37,181 nucleotides of DNA, taken from positions 1 through 37,181 of the IMG/VR virus record IMGVR_UViG_3300037756_000102, one strand, 5' to 3'. Of this stretch, positions 2,211 through 37,181 are shown one piece after another (position 1 is the first letter of the stretch; every line of letters begins with the position of its first letter). The stretch is from a virus. Its lineage: Duplodnaviria; Caudoviricetes. A program made the position numbers and the translations under genes. The notes under the pieces are model-generated. The model made no database searches. It was given only the letters and a program-made list of their open reading frames with translations, and was not told the DNA's origin.

Positions 2211-2389
2211 TGCAGATATCTGTTTCGGAAGCCCGGCAGAACCTGGCCGAACTGGTGGACCGGGTGAAGTGCTCCGGGCTTTCCGTGACACTCACCCGCC
2301 ACGGAAAGCCCGTGGCCGTTCTCGGGCCGGTGGAGGAAGACAATGACGAAGGAAGAAGCGATCCGCGAAGCGGCGAAGGAATTCGATGA
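2210..2389 (+). CDS. Phd/YefM-family antitoxin-like DNA-binding protein
   Basis: MQISVSEARQNLAELVDRV...VTLTRHGKPVAVL matches the Phd/YefM N-terminal signature. Confidence 0.8.
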   Translation: MQISVSEARQNLAELVDRVKCSGLSVTLTRHGKPVAVLGPVEEDNDEGRSDPRSGEGIR

Positions 2390-2474
2390 CGAACCGCTCC
2401 GGGAACTCGCGGCCATGGCCGAAGCAATCCGGCTTGGAGCAAGCCTCGAGGAAATCGCGGCGGCCGGAGACTGA
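2343..2474 (+). CDS. 43-aa acidic helical peptide (MTKEEAIREAAKEF...)
   Basis: Read by hand; strong GGAGG RBS; overlaps the 3' end of the Phd-like gene. Confidence 0.45.
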   Translation: MTKEEAIREAAKEFDDEPLRELAAMAEAIRLGASLEEIAAAGD

Positions 2475-2574
2475 GGCGTTGCCGGGTTGCCGTTGCCAGG
2501 CACACCCCGCCCCCTTGACGTGCGCACACGGGCCGCACGCAACACGCAACAGCAACAGGACGGAGGGACACACC

Positions 2575-4260
2575 ATGGACGTCATCGGGGCTCTGGGATC
2601 GGGCGGCATGCTGGTACTGGTTGTGCTGGCCTCCGTTCTGCTGCTCAAGAACGACAAGGTGCGGAAGGCGGCCAAAGTCAGAGCTCGAGAGATTGCCCGC
2701 AGGCTGTGGACCGCTTACCGCCGCTGGCACAAGCGCGTCGGGTACCGTGCCGCCGCACCGGGCGACGGGTGCGCGGCTCTTTCCGCCGGGGTTTTCGTGT
2801 CGGGGTTTCCGGTGCTGTCCGCCGGGGGAATTCTTCTGGCCGCCGCTCTGTGGACTCGGGCCACCAGGAAAAACGGAAAAGCCCGGGGGCCGGTAAAGAC
2901 CCTGAAGCCCACCCGCGAAGAGAAGCGGCTGATGGGTGCGCTCTCCCGGTGGGAATCCATCGCCCCCGCGCGCGGGCTGGAGCTGGTCACGGTGACCGGC
3001 ACCGAGCTGACCAAAGCGGGAATCGTAGCTGACCTGGACCTCGGCAGGGGCTGGTCCGTGCCGGAGCTGAACAAACGCACCGAGGACGTAGGGGCGCTGT
3101 TGGCCGCGCTCGATGACATGCCGATGGAGATCGGTCCGGGCGGGCGGAAGGGCAAAGCCAAGCTGGCCCTGCGCACCCGCTCCGCCACAGACGGGATCGA
3201 TATGGGCTGGACCCCGGACTGTACGGGCCTGGGGCTCGACACCGTGACCGGGGAGGAAGTCGTTCTGGGGTGGCGGGACCGGGTCCTGGTGGCCGGCACG
3301 TCGGGCGCCGGTAAGTCGGTTTTCCTGCGCCCGCTGCTGGCCGATGTGCTGGCCCTGGACTGGGCTCATGTGGTGTACATCGACATGAAAATGGTCGAAG
3401 GCGCCCTGTGGGAGCCGCTGGGGGCCACGGTCGCGTACACCACGGAAGACGTGGAAGCCGTGGTGACAGGCCTGGTGGCGGAGATGAACTACCGGCTGGC
3501 CGACATCAAGGGGAAGTCAGCCAAGTGGACGCCGACCCCGGCGCATCCCGAGACGCTGGTCATCGTGGATGAGGGCGCTGAAGTGATGCTCCGTACCAAG
3601 CTGGGGCTGGCCGGGCTGGAGACCCTGGCGCGGATGGCGCGCGCAGCCGGTATCCATCTCTGGTGGTGCACGCAGAAGCCCACCATGTCCGGTCCGGGCG
3701 CGGGTATCCCCCCGCAGATCGCCGCACAGATGAATGTCCAGGTCTGCCTGAAAGTCCGTACCCCCTCGGAGGCGCGGACCGTGCTAGGGGAGGACGCGAC
3801 GGCTCTGGGCTGGCACGCCAACCTCCTGCCGGCCCCGGGACACGCGCTGATCCGGGGGACCGGACGCGGACCGGTCGCGGTCAAGGGGTGGCACATGGAG
3901 GACGGACAGATTCAGTCTGTCCCGTCTGTCCACAAGGACTGTCCTCCGGTCTTGTCTGCCTCTGCGGACAGTCCGGTGTCTGTGTCCGGTGTCCCGGACG
4001 ACTTGTCCGCGTGGCTTGTCCGTCCCCGGGACACGGTGTCCCTGGACAAGAAGGACCTGGACTGGGAGCCGCTGTCCGTCGCGGACTGTGTCCTGTCGGT
4101 CCTGTGGACATCGGACGGTCCGCTGGGGGTGCGGGACATCGCCCGGGAGTGCGGAAAGAATCCGGGGACGGTGTCCCGGACACTGCGACAGCTTCAGGAC
4201 AGCGGGAAGACTGTCCTGGACGAGGCGGGAAAGTGGTCCGCTCCCCGGGTTGACGCCTGA
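2575..4260 (+). CDS. traB: TraB-like FtsK/SpoIIIE conjugative DNA translocase
   Basis: N-terminal TM helices, Walker A GTSGAGKS, Walker B LVIVDE, LARMARAAGIHL..TQKP motif, C-terminal wHTH; RBS GGAGGG before ATG 2575. Confidence 0.85.
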   Translation: MDVIGALGSGGMLVLVVLASVLLLKNDKVRKAAKVRAREIARRLWTAYRRWHKRVGYRAAAPGDGCAALSAGVFVSGFPVLSAGGILLAAALWTRATRKNGKARGPVKTLKPTREEKRLMGALSRWESIAPARGLELVTVTGTELTKAGIVADLDLGRGWSVPELNKRTEDVGALLAALDDMPMEIGPGGRKGKAKLALRTRSATDGIDMGWTPDCTGLGLDTVTGEEVVLGWRDRVLVAGTSGAGKSVFLRPLLADVLALDWAHVVYIDMKMVEGALWEPLGATVAYTTEDVEAVVTGLVAEMNYRLADIKGKSAKWTPTPAHPETLVIVDEGAEVMLRTKLGLAGLETLARMARAAGIHLWWCTQKPTMSGPGAGIPPQIAAQMNVQVCLKVRTPSEARTVLGEDATALGWHANLLPAPGHALIRGTGRGPVAVKGWHMEDGQIQSVPSVHKDCPPVLSASADSPVSVSGVPDDLSAWLVRPRDTVSLDKKDLDWEPLSVADCVLSVLWTSDGPLGVRDIARECGKNPGTVSRTLRQLQDSGKTVLDEAGKWSAPRVDA

Positions 4261-27960: not shown

Positions 27961-29343
27961 TCAGGTCTCCTCTTCCCAGAGCGCCACTACCGTCCCCCTG
28001 CACCGGGGTCCGCCCAGACAGGCTGTGTAGCCACCCGCAGGGTAAGCCACCAGCGAATCGGCCAGCGTCTCGAACTCTGTCCCGTCGATGTCCCGGCACG
28101 GGCCGCACACGTTGCGGTCCAGGATTTCCGACGCCGTGTACACACGTGCCGGGGGCGCGGCCTCCAGCACGGTGCGGCGTCCCTCGTTCTGCGCAGCCGT
28201 GATCGCCCCGCCCACCGTGACCCGCGGCCCGGCATCGGACAGGCCGACCAGGTGGGCGCCCACTTCCTCCCCCACCTGGACCGGGGAGACCTGCGGGCGC
28301 CCGATCAGCTCCAGCGCCCGGCGGACAGCGGACTGAACCAGAGAACTGTTCAGGATCCTGGCCGTCACGCCCGCGATGGAGCGCAGCAGATCCAGCCCCA
28401 CCGCGGCAGTCACAGCCCCGCCCAGTTCCCAGTCCGGAACAGCTACGCCCTGTTCCTCCGCTTCCTTCTGCTGGGCTTCCCCGGCCTGCTGTGCGGCACG
28501 CACCATGTGATCAATCAGCACGGCTTCTACCGGTGCCGCGTCCAGTGCCAAGGCATTCAACAGGTCCAGGTCACCGAGTTCGGCAGCGGCCTGAACTTCA
28601 CCCGTCAGAGTCTCGATCTGCTGCTGACGCAGCGGCTCAAGGTCGGCCATCACAGCATCTACGGCTGACTCCCAGTCACCCTGCATCCGGGTGAAGTCAG
28701 TGAACCGCTCGTCCGGCCGGGGCTGCCTGCGCAGCGGACCCGCAGCAGCCGTAACAGCGGAACCCAGCGGGATGTCCGTGTGCTCCCCGCCGAACGCCAG
28801 TCGCACACGGTCGAACGTGACCGGGCCCATACGGGTGGCCACACTCTTGATCAGCGATGTGTCTCCCGAGTACGCCACACAGATGTGCGGCGCCCACGGT
28901 GCGTGCTGGACCGGAAGGTCATCCGGTCCGTGCCGGTCCTCAAGAGCGTCTGTGGCAAGCCGGTGCAGATCCTCAAGCCGGGCGCCCTCGCTGTCCCGGT
29001 CGTCTCCCACTCCGAGGACCCAGCACGGTTCAGGACTGCCCGCGTTCCAGTGGTTCGCCCCGAACACGCGGGCCTGTACCGCCCCCGGAGGCTCCGCCTC
29101 CAGCCGGCTGCGAACCAGGCTGATCAGCTCCGTTCGCTGATCCTCACTCCAGTCCTCACCCTCCCCGAGGAAGAACAGAGTCAGATGCAGCTCCCCCGCG
29201 TCCTCCCCACCGGGCAGCGCCAGACGCTCCGCGTCCTCCTCCGTGGGCATGAGCGCGATCATCGCCCCGGACGTGTGCGACCCATCGGCAGCGGCCCGCA
29301 GCGTACGCAGCCGGAAAAACGGATCGTCAGCGACGATGCCCAT
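27961..29343 (-). CDS. 2H phosphoesterase (2'-5' RNA ligase-like) fused to MuF-like head morphogenesis domain
   Basis: LHLTL and PHICV 2H motifs; C-terminal SEILD..VC.PC..DG...C.G..RCRG. Confidence 0.7.
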   Translation of the reverse strand: MGIVADDPFFRLRTLRAAADGSHTSGAMIALMPTEEDAERLALPGGEDAGELHLTLFFLGEGEDWSEDQRTELISLVRSRLEAEPPGAVQARVFGANHWNAGSPEPCWVLGVGDDRDSEGARLEDLHRLATDALEDRHGPDDLPVQHAPWAPHICVAYSGDTSLIKSVATRMGPVTFDRVRLAFGGEHTDIPLGSAVTAAAGPLRRQPRPDERFTDFTRMQGDWESAVDAVMADLEPLRQQQIETLTGEVQAAAELGDLDLLNALALDAAPVEAVLIDHMVRAAQQAGEAQQKEAEEQGVAVPDWELGGAVTAAVGLDLLRSIAGVTARILNSSLVQSAVRRALELIGRPQVSPVQVGEEVGAHLVGLSDAGPRVTVGGAITAAQNEGRRTVLEAAPPARVYTASEILDRNVCGPCRDIDGTEFETLADSLVAYPAGGYTACLGGPRCRGTVVALWEEET

Positions 29344-31208: not shown

Positions 31209-31589
31209 TCACGCCCATTCCTGGGCTGCCAGAAGGGCGCCCAGGGCCCACACGGCTGCCCACACCAGGACCGGATCCGGTACCGATCCCCAGTGGGCGA
31301 CAGCCGCTGTCACTCCGGCAGCGACCCACCCGGATGCACACCACGCGCAGGAGACCAGTTCCCCGAACCAGCGGGGTGACCAGCGCCAGGGCTGCACGTA
31401 GCGGTGCATGACCCCGTCGAGTTCCTTGAGGTCTCCACCGTTCTGCGGGGCGTGCCGGGCCCGGACCGGTACCCAGTCGCCGGCCAGTCGGGCACGGACC
31501 CACAGGACCGGGGGGAAGGTGTCCTCGACGACAAGCCGGGTGCCCCGGTAGGTGGCGAGGGACATGAGAGTGAGCAGCATCCACGTCAT
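31209..31589 (-). CDS. DUF1360-like membrane protein
   Basis: LATYR.TRLV..D and GEL.SC.WC...W motifs; TM helices. Confidence 0.75.
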   Translation of the reverse strand: MTWMLLTLMSLATYRGTRLVVEDTFPPVLWVRARLAGDWVPVRARHAPQNGGDLKELDGVMHRYVQPWRWSPRWFGELVSCAWCASGWVAAGVTAAVAHWGSVPDPVLVWAAVWALGALLAAQEWA

Positions 31590-31613
31590 ATGACGTACTG
31601 TAACCGGCCCCGG

Positions 31614-34034
31614 TCAGCCGATCTTCCGGCCCGCAGCAGCCGACGCAATCGACCCCTGACCGGACGACACCGCCTGTACCAGCCGCATATGCCATGGGCC
31701 CCACACCATCGCGTCCAGTCTGTCCGGTGACCACCCCAGCTCCGGATACCAGGTACACAACTGGCCCTCCAGTTCCTCGAACACCCCGACGTGATGCCAG
31801 CGGCCCTGAGCACTGAGCGCGCTCACCGGCTGCGCCCGGATCACCTTCCCCCGCGTCGCCCGGACCTGCTTGAGCGGGATACTCACCCCCATCCGCTCAC
31901 ACGCCGTACGCAGCACCGCCACCGCCTGATCGCCCCCGTAGTTGACCTCCACACAGATGTCATCCGCCTCCCAGTCCACGGCCGCCTGTACCGCACGGGC
32001 TCCCCAGCCCTCCGGCTGAAGCCTGCACGTCCGGTCGTCCAGCACGAAGCCGTGCGCGCGGGCCCGGGGCTGGCCGCCCTCCATCTCCTCCGGTTCAGGG
32101 AATGTGCCGGGCAGCACCAAACCCGACTTGGCTGTGACCACGATCCCCTGTTCCCCCGCCCCGCCGGACGGGTCCACACCCACCGTGATGCGCGCCGTAC
32201 TGGGAAGCTGATCGGGGGTGATCCGGCCATGGGCAAGCGAGGTACGGCGCCACAGGGCGTTCTGCACCTCCTCCAGCAGCCGCCCGTACAGTTCCTGATC
32301 GCCGATCTCCGTACCCGCGTACGCGTCCTCCAGCGCGGCCTTCACGCCCTGGTCAAGGTACGGATTGTCATACATCGTCGCGTGCGTGTGGGCGACCTTC
32401 GGTATGTCCCCGGAGATCAGTTTCTTGAGCAGCGGGCGGGGCCGGGGGGTGGTTGTCGCCACCCAGTGCGGACGCCTCCCGGACCGCAGACCGAACCGCA
32501 GCTGATCCCAGCACGCGTCCATGTACCGCCACGCAGCGAATTCCTCCAGCCACGCTGTGCAAAGATTTCCACCAGCCCGCAGCCGGTCCGCAGCTTTCGG
32601 TTCATCCGCCCCGAACAGTTTGGCCTGCGATCCGTTCTGCCAACGGATCACCGTGCCTCCCGGCGCCTGCACCAGCCGGGCGCCCGGGTTGTGGCTCCGC
32701 AGCCCGGACGGCCCTTCCCAGCACGCTGTGACCGCGTCTCCCAGCGTCGGGGCGATGATGCCGATCCAGTGCGGTACAGGGCCCGGGATGCACGGTGGAC
32801 CGTTCACGTGGTCGGTCAGGTACGCGGCAGCGGCAGCGGTCTTCCCGCTGTTGTGATGCCAGATGCCTTCCGCTAGGTAGCTGTGTACACCGGGGACTTG
32901 CAGGTCGTAGAACTCCCCGTAGCCGATACTCTGTTTGGACACCACCCGTCGCCAGGTAGTAGAATCCAACCATGGCCCCGAAATGGAAACTTCCACCGGA
33001 CGCAATTGATCGCTATCAGTCAGGGATGTCCCTGAAAGACCTAGCGAATGAATACGGCACCAGCCCCCAGACGGTTGGCCGTCGCCTCCAGGCAGCCGGG
33101 GTGAAACTGCGAGGGGCAGAGAAGACAGAACAGCATCGGGCGCGTCTGTCCGCAGCCAAGCTGACCCCCCTTGATGAGGGACAGCTACGTAAACGGGCAT
33201 CTCAAGGGATGAGTTGTCGAGAGATCGCTGCGGAGCTGGGAGTGAATGAGGAAGTAGCCCGGGAACGCATGATCCGTCTTGGGCTGCCGCGTCTGCCGGC
33301 CAAGGCGCGTCCGGAACGTAACCACTTCTGGCGAGGTGGCCGAACGACGGACAAGGCTGGTTACATCTTGGTGAAGGCGCCTGGTCACCCCCATGCCACC
33401 CAGAGCGGCTACGTACGGGAACACCGACTGGTGATGGAACAGGAAATCGGAAGGTATCTGGAACCGGGCGAGGTAGTGGACCATATCGACGGCAACCCGT
33501 CGAACAACGATCCGTCAAACCTCCGGCTGTTCGCGTCGAACGCGGAGCATCTTCGTGTGACGCTCGCGGGTCGGACCCCGAACTGGACTGAGGACGGTTG
33601 GCGCCGCATCCAAGCAGGTGTCCGGAAAGCAGCTCGTCAGCGCGCCGCCAGCCAGAAGGCGTCAGAAAACGGTGACCCCCAGTAACCGCGACTGAGCTGC
33701 CGTCGTCCAGCTCGAAGCGCAACCACTCAGCTGTCCCCTTACGGAACGGCGCAGCGCAGCGCACCGGAACAGCTCCGTCGTGCCCGAGACCGAGCACAGT
33801 GATGGGCTGCCCGGAGGCAGCCAACTCAGCCACCGGTGCTTCAACCCCAGTCAACGGGTCAAGGATCCGTGTCCATGGAGCGATACATCCCCGCCCGGCC
33901 ATAAGCAGCCACCCGTACCAGTCCCCCGGAGGCGGAACCTGGTGCGGCTGCGGGCGCCACCGCGCCGGAGCATGCGCCCGGGTGGCGAGAGCTCTCGCAG
34001 CCAGCTGCGCCACCGCTACACGGTCAGTGTCCAT
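31614..34034 (-). CDS. terL: terminase large subunit containing an intein (460 aa after splicing)
   Basis: Spliced Walker A AGRG/SGKT, WLEE Walker B, TTTP, DNPYL, VGVDP and SPDRLDA nuclease motifs. Confidence 0.92.
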   Translation of the reverse strand: MDTDRVAVAQLAARALATRAHAPARWRPQPHQVPPPGDWYGWLLMAGRGCIAPWTRILDPLTGVEAPVAELAASGQPITVLGLGHDGAVPVRCAAPFRKGTAEWLRFELDDGSSVAVTGGHRFLTPSGWRRADELLSGHLLGCGANRPQSSSGSDPRASHEDAPRSTRTAGGLTDRCSTGCRRYGPLPRPVPDTFRFPVPSPVGVPVRSRSGWHGGDQAPSPRCNQPCPSFGHLARSGYVPDAPWPADAAAQDGSCVPGLLPHSLPAPQRSLDNSSLEMPVYVAVPHQGGSAWLRTDAPDAVLSSLPLAVSPRLPGGDGQPSGGWCRIHSLGLSGTSLTDSDQLRPVEVSISGPWLDSTTWRRVVSKQSIGYGEFYDLQVPGVHSYLAEGIWHHNSGKTAAAAAYLTDHVNGPPCIPGPVPHWIGIIAPTLGDAVTACWEGPSGLRSHNPGARLVQAPGGTVIRWQNGSQAKLFGADEPKAADRLRAGGNLCTAWLEEFAAWRYMDACWDQLRFGLRSGRRPHWVATTTPRPRPLLKKLISGDIPKVAHTHATMYDNPYLDQGVKAALEDAYAGTEIGDQELYGRLLEEVQNALWRRTSLAHGRITPDQLPSTARITVGVDPSGGAGEQGIVVTAKSGLVLPGTFPEPEEMEGGQPRARAHGFVLDDRTCRLQPEGWGARAVQAAVDWEADDICVEVNYGGDQAVAVLRTACERMGVSIPLKQVRATRGKVIRAQPVSALSAQGRWHHVGVFEELEGQLCTWYPELGWSPDRLDAMVWGPWHMRLVQAVSSGQGSIASAAAGRKIG
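32936..32971 (+). promoter_or_regulatory. putative leaderless promoter of the antisense HNH gene
   Basis: TGGACA-N18-TAGAAT-N6-ATG(32972); no Shine-Dalgarno. Confidence 0.55.
32972..33685 (+). CDS. HNH homing endonuclease with two HTH domains, antisense and fully nested in the intein
   Basis: HTH GMSLKDLANEYGTSPQTV; HTH GMSCREIAAELGV; N.FWRGG..GY..HP..GYV.EHRLVME..VDHIDGNPSNNDPSNL..EH. Confidence 0.9.
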   Translation: MAPKWKLPPDAIDRYQSGMSLKDLANEYGTSPQTVGRRLQAAGVKLRGAEKTEQHRARLSAAKLTPLDEGQLRKRASQGMSCREIAAELGVNEEVARERMIRLGLPRLPAKARPERNHFWRGGRTTDKAGYILVKAPGHPHATQSGYVREHRLVMEQEIGRYLEPGEVVDHIDGNPSNNDPSNLRLFASNAEHLRVTLAGRTPNWTEDGWRRIQAGVRKAARQRAASQKASENGDPQ

Positions 34035-34052
34035 GGACGGAGTGTGCCCGGT

Positions 34053-34616
34053 TCAACGTACGGCCGCGTCCCCGCGAGTGGGGCGGCCAGCGGAGTTCTT
34101 CCCGTGGTGCCACCACGTCCAGCTCCGGACCGGGAGATGAACGATGCGGGCGCCCGCAGCGACGCAGCCCTTGGTAAACGCGAAATCCTCCCCCACACCC
34201 TTGAAACCCACACTCCGCGCGAGGCCGGTACGCACGAGAATCGTGATGGTGGTGGAGTGCGGGTGATCGTCGTCCCAGGGCTTCCCGAAGAACATGGGGA
34301 ACGGGTCGGAACCTCCCTTCACCCGGAACCAGGGGTACACGTAGTCCGCCCCGGTCTCCTCCGCACAGGCCAGCAGCCCCGCGATATGACCCGGATCCAT
34401 CTCGTCATCCGAGTCAAGGAACGCGGTCCACTCCGTCTCCACCAGGGCCATGCCGCAGTTCCGGGTCATGGCCGCGCCCTTGTGGAACACATCCCGGGCG
34501 AGGATGTGTTCCACGGGGACCGTCTGTGCGGCCACAGACGCAGCGGCCCGTTTCAGCATCCCGTTGCGCTCTCGCGCCTCGTGGTAAGGCGTGACCACGG
34601 TGACGCCCGGCTTCAT
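34053..34616 (-). CDS. glycosyltransferase family 2
   Basis: VTVVTP, GAA.TRN.G, AFLDSDD and GED motifs. Confidence 0.85.
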   Translation of the reverse strand: MKPGVTVVTPYHEARERNGMLKRAAASVAAQTVPVEHILARDVFHKGAAMTRNCGMALVETEWTAFLDSDDEMDPGHIAGLLACAEETGADYVYPWFRVKGGSDPFPMFFGKPWDDDHPHSTTITILVRTGLARSVGFKGVGEDFAFTKGCVAAGARIVHLPVRSWTWWHHGKNSAGRPTRGDAAVR

Positions 34617-35053
34617 CGCGGAGTGCCCTTCCACAGGATCTCGTTGTCTCCCTGGATCCTCAGCTCCAGCGTCTTCCACGGTCGCAGACCGTAGTCAGCG
34701 TGCGCAGCCTTCGTACCGTCCAGATAGTGGAAACTGGCCATGCACCAGAAGCTGACATGGGTGGGGTCGGCGAACGCATGCCAGGTTCCCGATAGACAGT
34801 TCGGCACTCGGATCTCGAACACGGAACCGGGCTTGAGGACCCGGTGCGCCTCGTTCATCACCGTGATGCGCGGCTCGCCGGCCGGGATGTGCTCCATCAC
34901 GTGCGACGCGCGGATAGCGTCCATGGTCCGGTCACCGGTCGGCCACGCCGCGCCCTGCGCCATCCGCTTCCACGGCCCGGTCCCGTGCTGGGGGTCCAGG
35001 TTGATCCACCCTGACTGGACGAGTTTCCCGCCACCGATCTCGATACTGGGCAT
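34613..35053 (-). CDS. class I SAM-dependent methyltransferase
   Basis: IEIGGG, SHVMEHI, HRVLKPG and DPTH motifs. Confidence 0.85.
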   Translation of the reverse strand: MPSIEIGGGKLVQSGWINLDPQHGTGPWKRMAQGAAWPTGDRTMDAIRASHVMEHIPAGEPRITVMNEAHRVLKPGSVFEIRVPNCLSGTWHAFADPTHVSFWCMASFHYLDGTKAAHADYGLRPWKTLELRIQGDNEILWKGTPR

Positions 35054-35304
35054 CACACACGCTCCGGCCAGTGCCAGGTACCGCCAACCGCATGCCCACA
35101 CTCCACGTGTGAGACGCCTTGATTGAAGAACATTCCGGTGGGGTTGAGTATCGCCAGCGAGAGAATCCCTCCCCCAGCATCTCCCGAAGGGTCTTCCACT
35201 GCTGTGATGACTGCCGCTCGGCACTGCGAGCTGTACTCGCCGCCAGGTGTGCCATAACTGACGTAGTGCACGGTCCTGCCCACGCTCGGTATCTGTGCAC
35301 CCAT
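35053..35304 (-). CDS. hypothetical phage protein
   Basis: PSVGR.VHY...AA.IT...GTWHWPER motif; coupled on both sides. Confidence 0.7.
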   Translation of the reverse strand: MGAQIPSVGRTVHYVSYGTPGGEYSSQCRAAVITAVEDPSGDAGGGILSLAILNPTGMFFNQGVSHVECGHAVGGTWHWPERV

Positions 35305-35957
35305 CAGTGATGCCGTCCACTCGGCTCATGCTTCATCCACGGATTTGCGAAGTGCGTACCAGGCAGCGCGGCCGGGCGTAGCTTCGCCTCACGCAGTACG
35401 AACGCCTGCGAAACCTGATCGCGCTGTGATCCCGCGCGGACTTCCCGCGCCCACGTAGCACCCATCCGCTTGACAGCGGGGGTGTGCTGCCGGGCGATCA
35501 CCCCGGACGCCCACAACCCCCAGCGCTCCGGATGACCAGCGTCCCGGTACCGGTCCATCTGCGGAGCGGCCAGCCCATCGGGGTCCATTCCCAGCCGGAC
35601 GATCTCCGTACCCTCCTGATACAGGCAGTCCCGCCACGGATGAACCCACTGGGCGATGGGCTTGGCCAGTTCGAGGGCTTCGGCCGCGAAATCCGGGCTG
35701 GTGATCCGGAACGCTGCATCCACCCAGATACTCGCCTGTGCGTCGGTGTACTCCCACGGCAGGAACTTCGGGCGCTTCGCCGCACGTACCGCGGCCAACT
35801 TCGGCTGCGGCCTCACCACCACACGCCAGCCGAGGGGATCGGCAGGTGCCTTGTCCGTGACAAGCACCCAGTCCACCTCGATCCCGGTCTGCTTGAGAAC
35901 GGGCTTGACCGAGTCGTACCCGTCATACACCGCACTGACTATGGCCACGTCAGCCAT
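35304..35957 (-). CDS. glycosyltransferase-like protein (DUF616/TOD1-MUCI70-like)
   Basis: A..GYD, K..PW, SIWVDA, HPWRDC.Y.E and RDQ.S motifs; CAGACGGAGGAA RBS before 35957. Confidence 0.75.
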   Translation of the reverse strand: MADVAIVSAVYDGYDSVKPVLKQTGIEVDWVLVTDKAPADPLGWRVVVRPQPKLAAVRAAKRPKFLPWEYTDAQASIWVDAAFRITSPDFAAEALELAKPIAQWVHPWRDCLYQEGTEIVRLGMDPDGLAAPQMDRYRDAGHPERWGLWASGVIARQHTPAVKRMGATWAREVRAGSQRDQVSQAFVLREAKLRPAALPGTHFANPWMKHEPSGRHH

Positions 35958-36001
35958 GATTTTCCTCCGTCTGTCCTTGTCCACTGGGTCTCCCTGGTCC
36001 T

Positions 36002-36808
36002 TCATTTGTACCATTTCACGGTCGCTGCAATCCGATCCCAGTCCAGTTCCGGCTTCCAGTCCAGACGACCCCACCCGTCGCCCTCCGCAGTGATCTTCAC
36101 TGGCACCTCGCCCGGCCGCATCGGCAGATGCTCCACCCCCGCCGTACTGCCCGTCACCTGAAGGACGAAGTCGGCCAGCTCGTTGACCGTGACCGGTACA
36201 CCGGTGCCCGCGTCGAACACCACGTCATCGCCGTACGCAACTGCGGCAACCAGCATCCGCCCCACATCGTCGGCGTGCACCAGGTCCATGGTCTGTTCTC
36301 CGTCGCCCCAGACGGGCAGCGGACGGTTCTCCCACGCCGCGCGTGCGAACGTCGGCAGGATCTTCTGCGGATGGCCAGGCCCGTACGCCTGATAGGGGCC
36401 GTAGCCGTTGAACGCCCGAACGGTGGCCACACGCAGCCCGTAGGCATGGTGCCACGCGGTACTCAGGCGCCGGGCCGCGACCTTCGTCGCCGTGTACACG
36501 CTGGGGAACGGGTCGGGCATGCTGATGCCGACATAGCCGGCCCGGTGGGTACGGCACCACTCCAGTATCCGCAGGGTGCCCTTGACGTTGACCTCAAGAG
36601 CTGTTTCCGGCATGTCGAACAGCTCGGTGGTGCCGAGGACCCCTGCAAGATGAATGACCGTGTCCGCATCCCCCAGCGCCTCCAGGGATCCGAGGATGTC
36701 CCGACCCTGGAGGCGGTCGAACGCCCACACGGTGTGTCCGGCTTCCTGTGCCGCGCTGATGGTGGCCCGGCCGAAAAATCCGGCCCCACCGGTCACTGCG
36801 ATCTTCAT
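36002..36808 (-). CDS. NAD-dependent epimerase/dehydratase
   Basis: TGGAGFFG, HLAG, YTATK (YxxxK), N.YGP and GDGEQT.D motifs. Confidence 0.9.
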   Translation of the reverse strand: MKIAVTGGAGFFGRATISAAQEAGHTVWAFDRLQGRDILGSLEALGDADTVIHLAGVLGTTELFDMPETALEVNVKGTLRILEWCRTHRAGYVGISMPDPFPSVYTATKVAARRLSTAWHHAYGLRVATVRAFNGYGPYQAYGPGHPQKILPTFARAAWENRPLPVWGDGEQTMDLVHADDVGRMLVAAVAYGDDVVFDAGTGVPVTVNELADFVLQVTGSTAGVEHLPMRPGEVPVKITAEGDGWGRLDWKPELDWDRIAATVKWYK

Positions 36809-36823
36809 CGGACTTCTCCTCGC

Positions 36824-37181
36824 TCACCACGGGGTCCGGCCCCATTTCGCTTTGAACGCCTCGCGGTCCCGCCCTGCCTGCGCCTGGAGCTCCGGCCGTT
36901 CGTACATCGATCCGTTGGGGCAGCGGTGCTCGACCGTGAGACCCGGAACGAGAAGCGCCCCGCCCTTCTCTCTGGCACGCCAATCAAGATCATCGTCCCC
37001 GTACCACCACCTCAGTGACTCGTCCAGACGGAGCCCCGCTTCACCACGCAGCATGTACGCATATCCGGTGATCCGTGTCCACAGGTCGACCGGTCCGGCT
37101 TTGGTGTGGAGGATCCGGCGCTTCCCCCCGAGCTGGTCCGGGTAGGCGAGCACAGCCGTGGTGGAGCGCATCGCCGCGGAC
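36824..37181 (-). CDS. glycosyltransferase family 2, 3' part (truncated by window edge)
   Basis: G.A.M.R...DE...WYGDDD..V.H..D...F..KW C-terminal GT2 pattern. Confidence 0.65.
   Translation of the reverse strand, partial: SAAMRSTTAVLAYPDQLGGKRRILHTKAGPVDLWTRITGYAYMLRGEAGLRLDESLRWWYGDDDLDWRAREKGGALLVPGLTVEHRCPNGSMYERPELQAQAGRDREAFKAKWGRTPW

Follow-up and report, generated by a model that had tools for sequence, protein, structure and literature searches.

How can an intein be served by a homing endonuclease whose gene runs in the opposite direction to the intein itself? This question is raised by a linear virus record of 37,181 bases with 66% G+C (Duplodnaviria; Caudoviricetes; IMG/VR record IMGVR_UViG_3300037756_000102), which was analysed over its whole length and is referred to here as the window. 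The gene for the large subunit of its terminase (terL) is interrupted at the Walker A motif by an intein, and the strand opposite to this intein contains a complete open reading frame (ORF) for an HNH endonuclease with two helix-turn-helix (HTH) domains (Table 1). Together they probably make up a mobile two-strand element, in which the intein would splice a junk linker out of TerL and the antisense HNH protein would copy the insert into empty alleles. A preliminary description of the window, made from its letters alone, had already proposed such a composite selfish element. We find the mechanism well supported because of stop codon avoidance, purifying selection on HNH, a predicted antisense promoter and a patchy distribution; the uniqueness implied in the description did not stand.

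Table 1. Features of the terminase locus, in positions of the window
Feature	Position	Strand	Details or basis
terL, terminase large subunit precursor	31614..34034	-	806 aa; Pfam Terminase_6N, Intein_splicing, Terminase_6C; phrog_2
N-extein, 49 aa, ending in Walker A ...LMAGRG	33888..34034	-	ORF translation
Intein, 346 aa (TerL aa 50-395)	32850..33887	-	C1 ... H345-N346; 1038 nt
N-terminal splicing region, intein aa 1-95, blocks A and B, T69, H72	33603..33887	-	predicted local distance difference test score (pLDDT) ~88-97 over aa 1-90; RecA intein match
Linker, intein aa 96-304, stop-free, antisense reading of the HNH gene	32976..33602	-	predicted disordered, pLDDT <50
C-terminal splicing region, intein aa 305-346, blocks F and G	32850..32975	-	motifs; AlphaFold model
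C-extein, 411 aa, beginning with +1 Ser (SGKT)	31617..32849	-	ORF translation
Predicted sigma-70-type promoter TGGACA-18 nt-TAGAAT	32936..32965	+	6 nt before the HNH ATG; intein codons D308-K318
HTH-HTH-HNH endonuclease gene, 237 aa, starting in intein codons P305/W306 and stopping in V68/T69	32972..33685	+	Pfam, profile
First HTH, aa 9-41	32996..33094	+	Pfam HTH
Second HTH, aa 69-103	33176..33280	+	Pfam HTH
HNH (beta-beta-alpha-metal) core: H151, D170, H171, N179, N183, H193	33422..33550	+	Pfam, alignment, profile

An intein in the Walker A motif

The intein with intact splicing blocks that had been placed at AGRG|SGKT was borne out. Walker A of TerL reads AGRG|C...HHN|SGKT across the insert, and the residues of a class 1 intein are all present, namely C1, the block B T69-x-x-H72, H345, N346 and the +1 Ser. 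In the AlphaFold model of the intein, the two terminal regions were predicted with high confidence and form a HINT domain, and about 200 linker residues are disordered. A Foldseek search with this model matched the Mtu RecA intein (E 1e-7, root-mean-square deviation 1.5 A) and further DnaB and DnaE inteins. The insert interrupts a conserved Walker A motif and is absent from 112 of the 120 relatives listed below, as is typical of inteins. According to Kelley 2016 (PMC5050341), phage TerL inteins favour Walker A and do splice.

When both strands were scanned with Pfam models, the minus strand gave Intein_splicing on the TerL precursor at 34.7 bits, slightly below the cut-off of 35.8, and the plus strand gave HNH_3 and HTH. 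No nuclease match was found by Pfam in the 806-aa precursor, and therefore the insert is not a canonical bifunctional intein; the description was also right that nothing nuclease-like lies in frame between blocks B and F.

Contigs from other public DNA runs cross both junctions of the intein, the C-terminal one in contig X3 (32660-33488, one difference) and the N-terminal one in contig X2 (33747-34098, two differences). An assembly artefact was thus rejected. This check covered the contigs of four of the twelve listed runs, and neither a join that skips the intein nor a near-identical empty allele was found in them. An intron was rejected because no Rfam family reached its gathering threshold over 31500-34300.

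The endonuclease gene on the opposite strand

The 237-aa antisense ORF proved complete, as had been described, with H171, N179, N183 and H193 intact. Pfam identified HNH_3 (E 2.6e-13) together with the HTH domains, and neither a LAGLIDADG nor a VSR-like domain. The protein has the D/H-H...N...N...H/N core and the separate DNA-binding module of HNH homing endonucleases, and its top match by profile among solved nucleases was I-HmuI (PDB 1u3e, E 4e-4). The first HTH is an extra one, missing in the other 16 members of the HNH alignment (A1). The stop codon of HNH (TAA, 33683-33685) falls on the codons of block B residues, as the description had said, and the last HNH residues overlap the folded part of the intein, including block B. 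A complete nuclease ORF opposite a contiguous intein is the layout of the non-canonical inteins with antisense endonucleases.

When five of the six frames were searched for stops across the ORF, the TerL frame was the only stop-free one besides that of HNH. For the window alone, 0 stops stood against 3.4-3.7 expected in the TerL frame (P ~0.01-0.03), so that its openness is modestly unlikely to have arisen by chance.

A family of inteins with antisense HNH genes

With the window HNH as the sole query, 21 viral loci were found, and 19 of them had the same layout of intein and antisense HNH. A search with a 17-member HNH alignment returned 246 relatives in viral contigs, of which 80 were kept for analysis, and 28 in prokaryotic genome contigs. 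The family set contained 129 loci, among them that of the window and four taken from phages that are cultured or annotated, and 127 of these had an HNH match. We regarded as close relatives the 110 loci with an HNH-core score of at least 78 bits. After inspection, 109 of them lay inside an intein, all on a single strand and in a single antisense phase, and none of the 17 weaker matches did. The 110 close loci comprised 107 contiguous antisense inteins, one that was open but ended by its contig (L074), one with a stop (L042) and one free-standing gene (L033). The intein frame was open in 108 of the 109 intein loci, and the host gene is thus not divided into two ORFs as in a split intein; stops in homologues, which the description had held would speak against its proposal, were not the rule. 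The 106 complete inteins, of 278-393 aa, fell into 82 clusters at 90% nucleotide identity.

The hosts were mostly terminases of several subfamilies with an invaded Walker A. Others were helicases (L001, L034 and L084, two with SNF2 matches), a RecD-like protein (L081) and P-loop proteins without a Pfam call (L044, L071, L073 and L139). Searching cultured phages with the whole intein by tblastn gave no match; however, the HNH query did match. Because the intein alignment was too variable for scanning, a single N-terminal splicing domain was used instead, and this found four loci, three with antisense HNH and one mini-intein. Both HNH and the terminase of phage Sabo were matched in eight cultured phages (seven Ymer-group Pectobacterium phages and Dickeya phage Setonix), whose terminase genes thus contain a related element. 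On inspection, the full layout was present in Sabo (L023, PQ008974) and in Pseudoalteromonas phage PHS3 (L024, KX912252). The element explains annotation errors in these carriers: in Sabo, terL is labelled hypothetical and HNH was missed, and in PHS3, HNH was called and terL was split into two mislabelled genes around it. The main text of the paper on the Ymer genus (PMC11445585) contains none of the words 'intein', 'HNH' and 'homing'. Such cultured carriers make splicing, expression and homing directly testable.

Some relatives depart from the common layout. The free-standing family member (L033:2968-3486, +) is antisense to its neighbours and has no intein; its antisense frame in the intein phase is stop-free (0 vs 3.3 expected), and it is possibly an escapee from an intein. 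A 130-aa mini-intein without HNH (L138:2001-2390, +) occupies the same Walker A position and is close to the window's splicing domain; therefore, the splicing domain occurs without the linker. A partly reduced form of 161 aa was also seen (P0173). The terminase of L015 has a second intein-like insert, and the C-extein of L027 is similarly long.

Selection on both strands

A stop in the intein frame arises from NTT|A, NCT|A or NTC|A on the HNH strand, and the expected number was obtained by resampling synonymous HNH codons. Over 11,985 codons in the 82 clusters, the intein frame had 0 stops vs 344.9 expected. The two other antisense phases had 379 vs 383 and 531 vs 468, and 16 free-standing controls had 80 vs 93.7. 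Beside this count, which was made on contiguous members only, the search that started from HNH returned a single broken member among 109. The avoidance of stops in the intein frame is, across the family, far beyond chance. High G+C content was rejected as the cause of a chance opening, because the frame is open in members down to 32% G+C. The constraint also shapes the HNH protein itself, because before a codon starting with A phenylalanine codons were never used (0 of 243) and isoleucine was always ATA (41 of 41), compared to 99 of 510 elsewhere.

The linker is not conserved in sequence: over 3,321 pairs, the mean identity was 19% in the linker, 45% in HNH and 32% in the splicing domain. The ratio of nonsynonymous to synonymous differences (pN/pS) of HNH had a median of 0.23 over 58 pairs with at least 72% identity. 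One pair (L080/L086) had nonsynonymous and synonymous rates of 0.012 and 0.235, respectively, and the window HNH compared with its four closest relatives gave pN of 0.26-0.34 and pS of 0.63-0.82. H171, N179, N183 and H193 were kept in 82 of 82 clusters. These patterns indicate purifying selection on HNH. The comparison of both frames, which the description had suggested, gave a pN/pS of about 2 in the linker; positive selection was rejected there, because the wobble base of HNH is position 2 of the linker codon, and the overlap explains the value. The natural overlap of about 710 nt lies in an essential phage gene and has costs that can be measured on both strands, and it therefore offers a clean case in which to study the persistence of overlapping genes.

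Predicted expression of the endonuclease

The promoter predicted before HNH scored 10/12 and was the only sigma-70-like site within 32400-34400, where shuffled sequences gave 0.1; it sits in the codons of the C-terminal strand of the intein. A spacing of 6 nt between promoter and start codon corresponds to a leaderless transcript, a form of expression established for actinobacteria. Five relatives (L027, L028, L029, L030 and L115) have the same spacing from TAnnAT to the start, and other family members have longer leaders with GGAG-type sites. Leaderless initiation is discussed by Arsenault 2025 (PMC11855218). In the 82 clusters, we scored the 189 nt lying antisense to the intein at its C-terminal end. 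A score of at least 10/12 was reached in 12 clusters (null mean 2.9, maximum 7; one on the opposite strand), and at least 9/12 in 41 clusters vs 15.4 in the null. No terminator-like site was found in 32400-34400. From the predicted promoter, the expression of HNH may be decoupled from the late expression of the terminase.

Mobility and history

The insertion site was surveyed in the nearest 120 of 1,530 terminase matches, all proteins of 226-720 aa. In 112 of them Walker A was empty, three were C-terminal remnants of invaded genes (the window's own, P0102 and P0108) and five were unclassified. The +1 residue of the empty ones was Ala in 97 and Ser in 15. A quick tree of 119 rows placed the three invaded terminases in three separate places among empty alleles. 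Because the nearest empty neighbours of all three have Ala at +1, we infer that the targets were rare alleles with Ser or, alternatively, that homing co-converted the Ser codon. A search for longer forms gave 59 proteins, three with a full intein in Walker A at the window's position and 45 with an empty Walker A; one of the three, P0151, carries a 346-aa sister intein in a TerL that is 55% identical to the window's.

In two pairs of loci, the inteins were more alike than their surroundings, with nucleotide identities of 95.1% vs 67-80% in the flanks (L080/L086) and 99.3% vs 83-95% (L064/L068). This excess is consistent with homing. Trees of HNH and of the splicing domain, made with FastTree from few columns, agreed in their main clades, and these correspond to the target motif in both trees (AGRG, GGRG, GGSR and GxxG). 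The mini-intein L138 was nested among HNH-bearing inteins with weak support. The picture would fit a single old origin, after which the unit moved as a whole and HNH was lost on occasion.

Irregular Walker A sequences occur at the insertion point (AGRLRG|AGKT, AGRM|AGKT) in P0024, P0081, P0093, P0112, P0121, P0130 and P0131, and L133 has a frameshift there (about 1790-1810); these may be resistance alleles, scars or assembly errors. A different type of intein stands right after the Walker A lysine (GK|A or GK|P) in P0135, P0148, P0155 and P0167.

The proposed mechanism and its alternatives

In the two-strand element as we propose it, class 1 splicing in cis through C1, T69/H72, H345-N346 and the +1 Ser would restore TerL, and the linker would be discarded. 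A leaderless HNH mRNA from TGGACA/TAGAAT would begin at the ATG, independently of the late terL transcript. During co-infection, HNH would nick an empty allele near the Walker A codons in the manner of I-HmuI, or cut it, with the HTH domains giving specificity, and recombinational repair would then copy the whole insert into that allele. The element may have arisen when, on a single occasion long ago, a free-standing HNH gene invaded a mini-intein. The unit could then have spread among terminases of many subfamilies and to some helicases and ATPases, and would now and then have reverted to a mini-intein by loss.

Several observations weigh against this proposal. Half of the clusters (41 of 82) scored below 9/12 and have no convincing consensus promoter. 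The invaded relatives P0102, P0108 and P0151 are protein records only, so that their antisense strand is not visible. Four of the seven DNA pairs had no excess identity in the intein, and in a fifth it was modest only. The identities of HNH, splicing domain and extein are correlated to a similar degree (Spearman 0.47-0.52), and for this reason much of the history of the element may be vertical; pairwise correlations do not separate lateral from vertical history. The intein frame of L042 contains a stop. Both tallies are partly circular, because only members that had been classed as contiguous beforehand entered the stop count and motifs were used to place the intein ends. By Foldseek, the top nuclease match of the window HNH was again I-HmuI, but a weak one (E 0.09).

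The strong purifying selection could also be expected if HNH is expressed and active for the benefit of the phage and not for homing, either as a packaging accessory like gp74 of HK97 or as a nuclease against competitors. Its location in the packaging module would agree with this, and HNH nucleases that assist terminases are known (PMC3592412). However, the CxxC zinc site that marks the gp74 type was found neither in the 237-aa protein nor in the alignment consensus, and the HTH domains resemble those of homing enzymes. The same unit of intein and HNH also occurs in genes for SNF2, RecD-like and other ATPases, is missing from 112 of the 120 nearest terminases listed and appears to have been transferred recently in two pairs. 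We thus consider a phage-benefit role improbable.

Still less probable is that free-standing HNH genes entered mini-inteins repeatedly and independently, with the overlap as a tolerated accident and no travelling unit. The raw materials do exist in the close free-standing member L033 and the close mini-intein L138, and in some pairs HNH identity is 0.75 when that of the splicing domain is only about 0.4. Independent entries are difficult to reconcile with the single strand and phase in 109 of 109 inteins and with the matching clades of the two trees; L138 is nested (weakly supported) among HNH-bearing inteins, and the stop-free antisense phase of L033 looks like that of an escapee.

It is very improbable that the linker is never translated through, as it would be in a split intein or with processing at the RNA level. 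Split inteins around a free-standing nuclease are known (Dassa 2009, PMC2677866), and gene callers begin a 443-aa product inside the intein (P0001), but the complete avoidance of stops in the linker frame implies selected read-through, and no Rfam intron match reached the gathering threshold. A silent, decaying passenger in the window phage is hardly credible: although decay of the antisense ORF is expected once homing stops (Gosselin et al., bioRxiv 10.1101/2025.01.02.630785), the ORF is intact with all catalytic residues and a 10/12 promoter, and pN is well under pS against the four closest relatives.

Beyond the two-strand element itself, a broader view is possible but rather doubtful, namely that such inteins are an old and successful class of selfish elements with a single origin, in which the antisense layout itself is favoured: the strand would double as a promoter, the element would bring its own +1 Ser and it would jump between P-loop ATPases. 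If this were true, the last beta-strand of the intein would serve as a promoter for the host sigma factor, and the nuclease would be timed separately, early or from a prophage, beyond late terminase expression. The Ser codon carried by the element would open Walker A sites that have no splicing nucleophile, like the Ala of 97 of the 112 empty relatives, and the element would have moved among terminases, SNF2 and RecD-like helicases and other P-loop ATPases. In that case, inteins with antisense nucleases would form a major class in phages that is hidden and regularly mis-annotated, and they would not be a rare intermediate.

Relation to known systems

The preliminary description knew of no described example of an intein with an antisense nuclease, and in this it was wrong. 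Antisense LAGLIDADG and VSR-like homing endonucleases in inteins were described by Gosselin, Arsenault and Gogarten (bioRxiv 10.1101/2025.01.02.630785), who found non-canonical inteins in four host types, including terminase, as a rare form (63 of 784). Earlier antisense LAGLIDADG cases are those of the Synechocystis DnaX and a Chloroflexus SpoVR-like protein (Gorbalenya 1998, as cited by Gosselin 2025). Like the window, the inteins of Gosselin et al. are contiguous, with an unstructured in-frame linker, a nuclease ORF on the opposite strand, a phage terminase as host and signs of ongoing transfer, and what the authors propose for the origin and the joint action agrees with our proposal. They differ in having a LAGLIDADG or VSR-like nuclease instead of HTH-HNH; in the accessible part of the preprint, HNH is listed in frame only, and antisense HNH is not among the layouts. 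In that part, the support for the antisense cases is distributional only. Our full-text literature search, with its thin coverage of subscription journals, found no paper in which an intein has its HNH on the antisense strand. What seems undescribed is thus the HNH version, together with how large its family is; the layout itself is already published. In the 'splicing first' model, inteins gain nucleases by invasion, and what was supposed to be an intermediate would here be a stable and widespread end state.

Inteins that carry an HNH nuclease inside the excised protein have the same nuclease superfamily in the same place, between blocks B and F; in the window, the nuclease is instead a separate gene on the opposite strand. 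I-HmuI is encoded in a group I intron. It shares the VVDHxDGN..NN..NLR core with the window HNH, which differs in having its HTH domains N-terminal to the core and its gene in an intein. The ShiLan-type hidden HNH insertions in phage methylases (Arsenault 2025, PMC11855218) are similar in that an HNH gene sits within a host gene, the frame of which remains open as a loop, with leaderless translation proposed. However, they are on the same strand in frame 3 and have no splicing domain, whereas the window HNH is antisense and inside a true intein. In the fractured genes of Dassa 2009, split inteins likewise surround a separate, free-standing endonuclease between the halves of the splicing domain, and one such case is a terminase; the host gene is in two pieces there, and the frame of the window is unbroken and selected to stay so.

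A different arrangement was seen in a close relative of the window terminase (L130:544-2778, +; 69%), which has an empty Walker A and another intein at RAGGNT|C...SN|C. That intein contains an HNH_3 gene on the same strand, out of frame and with C-terminal CxxC ribbons (L130:1230-1757, +). The four layouts given in the accessible part of the preprint of Gosselin et al. do not include a true intein with an HNH out of frame. Inteins of 274-331 aa were found at the same site in P0122, P0132, P0138, P0141, P0144, P0156 and P0162.

The terminase gene and its genome setting

TerL is predicted to have 460 aa after splicing. The minus strand of the window carries the genes for terminase, portal, protease, major head and tape-measure proteins, with portal, protease and major head downstream of terL. 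Because the named relatives of the terminase come from Streptomyces, the host of the virus is probably an actinobacterium. Just upstream of terL, at 34053-37181 (-), are two glycosyltransferases, a methyltransferase and a nucleotide-sugar epimerase, possibly for glycosylation of the virion or the DNA, and similar genes precede terL in L133. A gene of the head module at 27961-29343 (-) has an N-terminal region like 2H phosphoesterases and RNA ligases and matches families of head maturation proteases in its C-terminal part. The plus strand carries an FtsK/SpoIIIE-like gene at 2386-4260.

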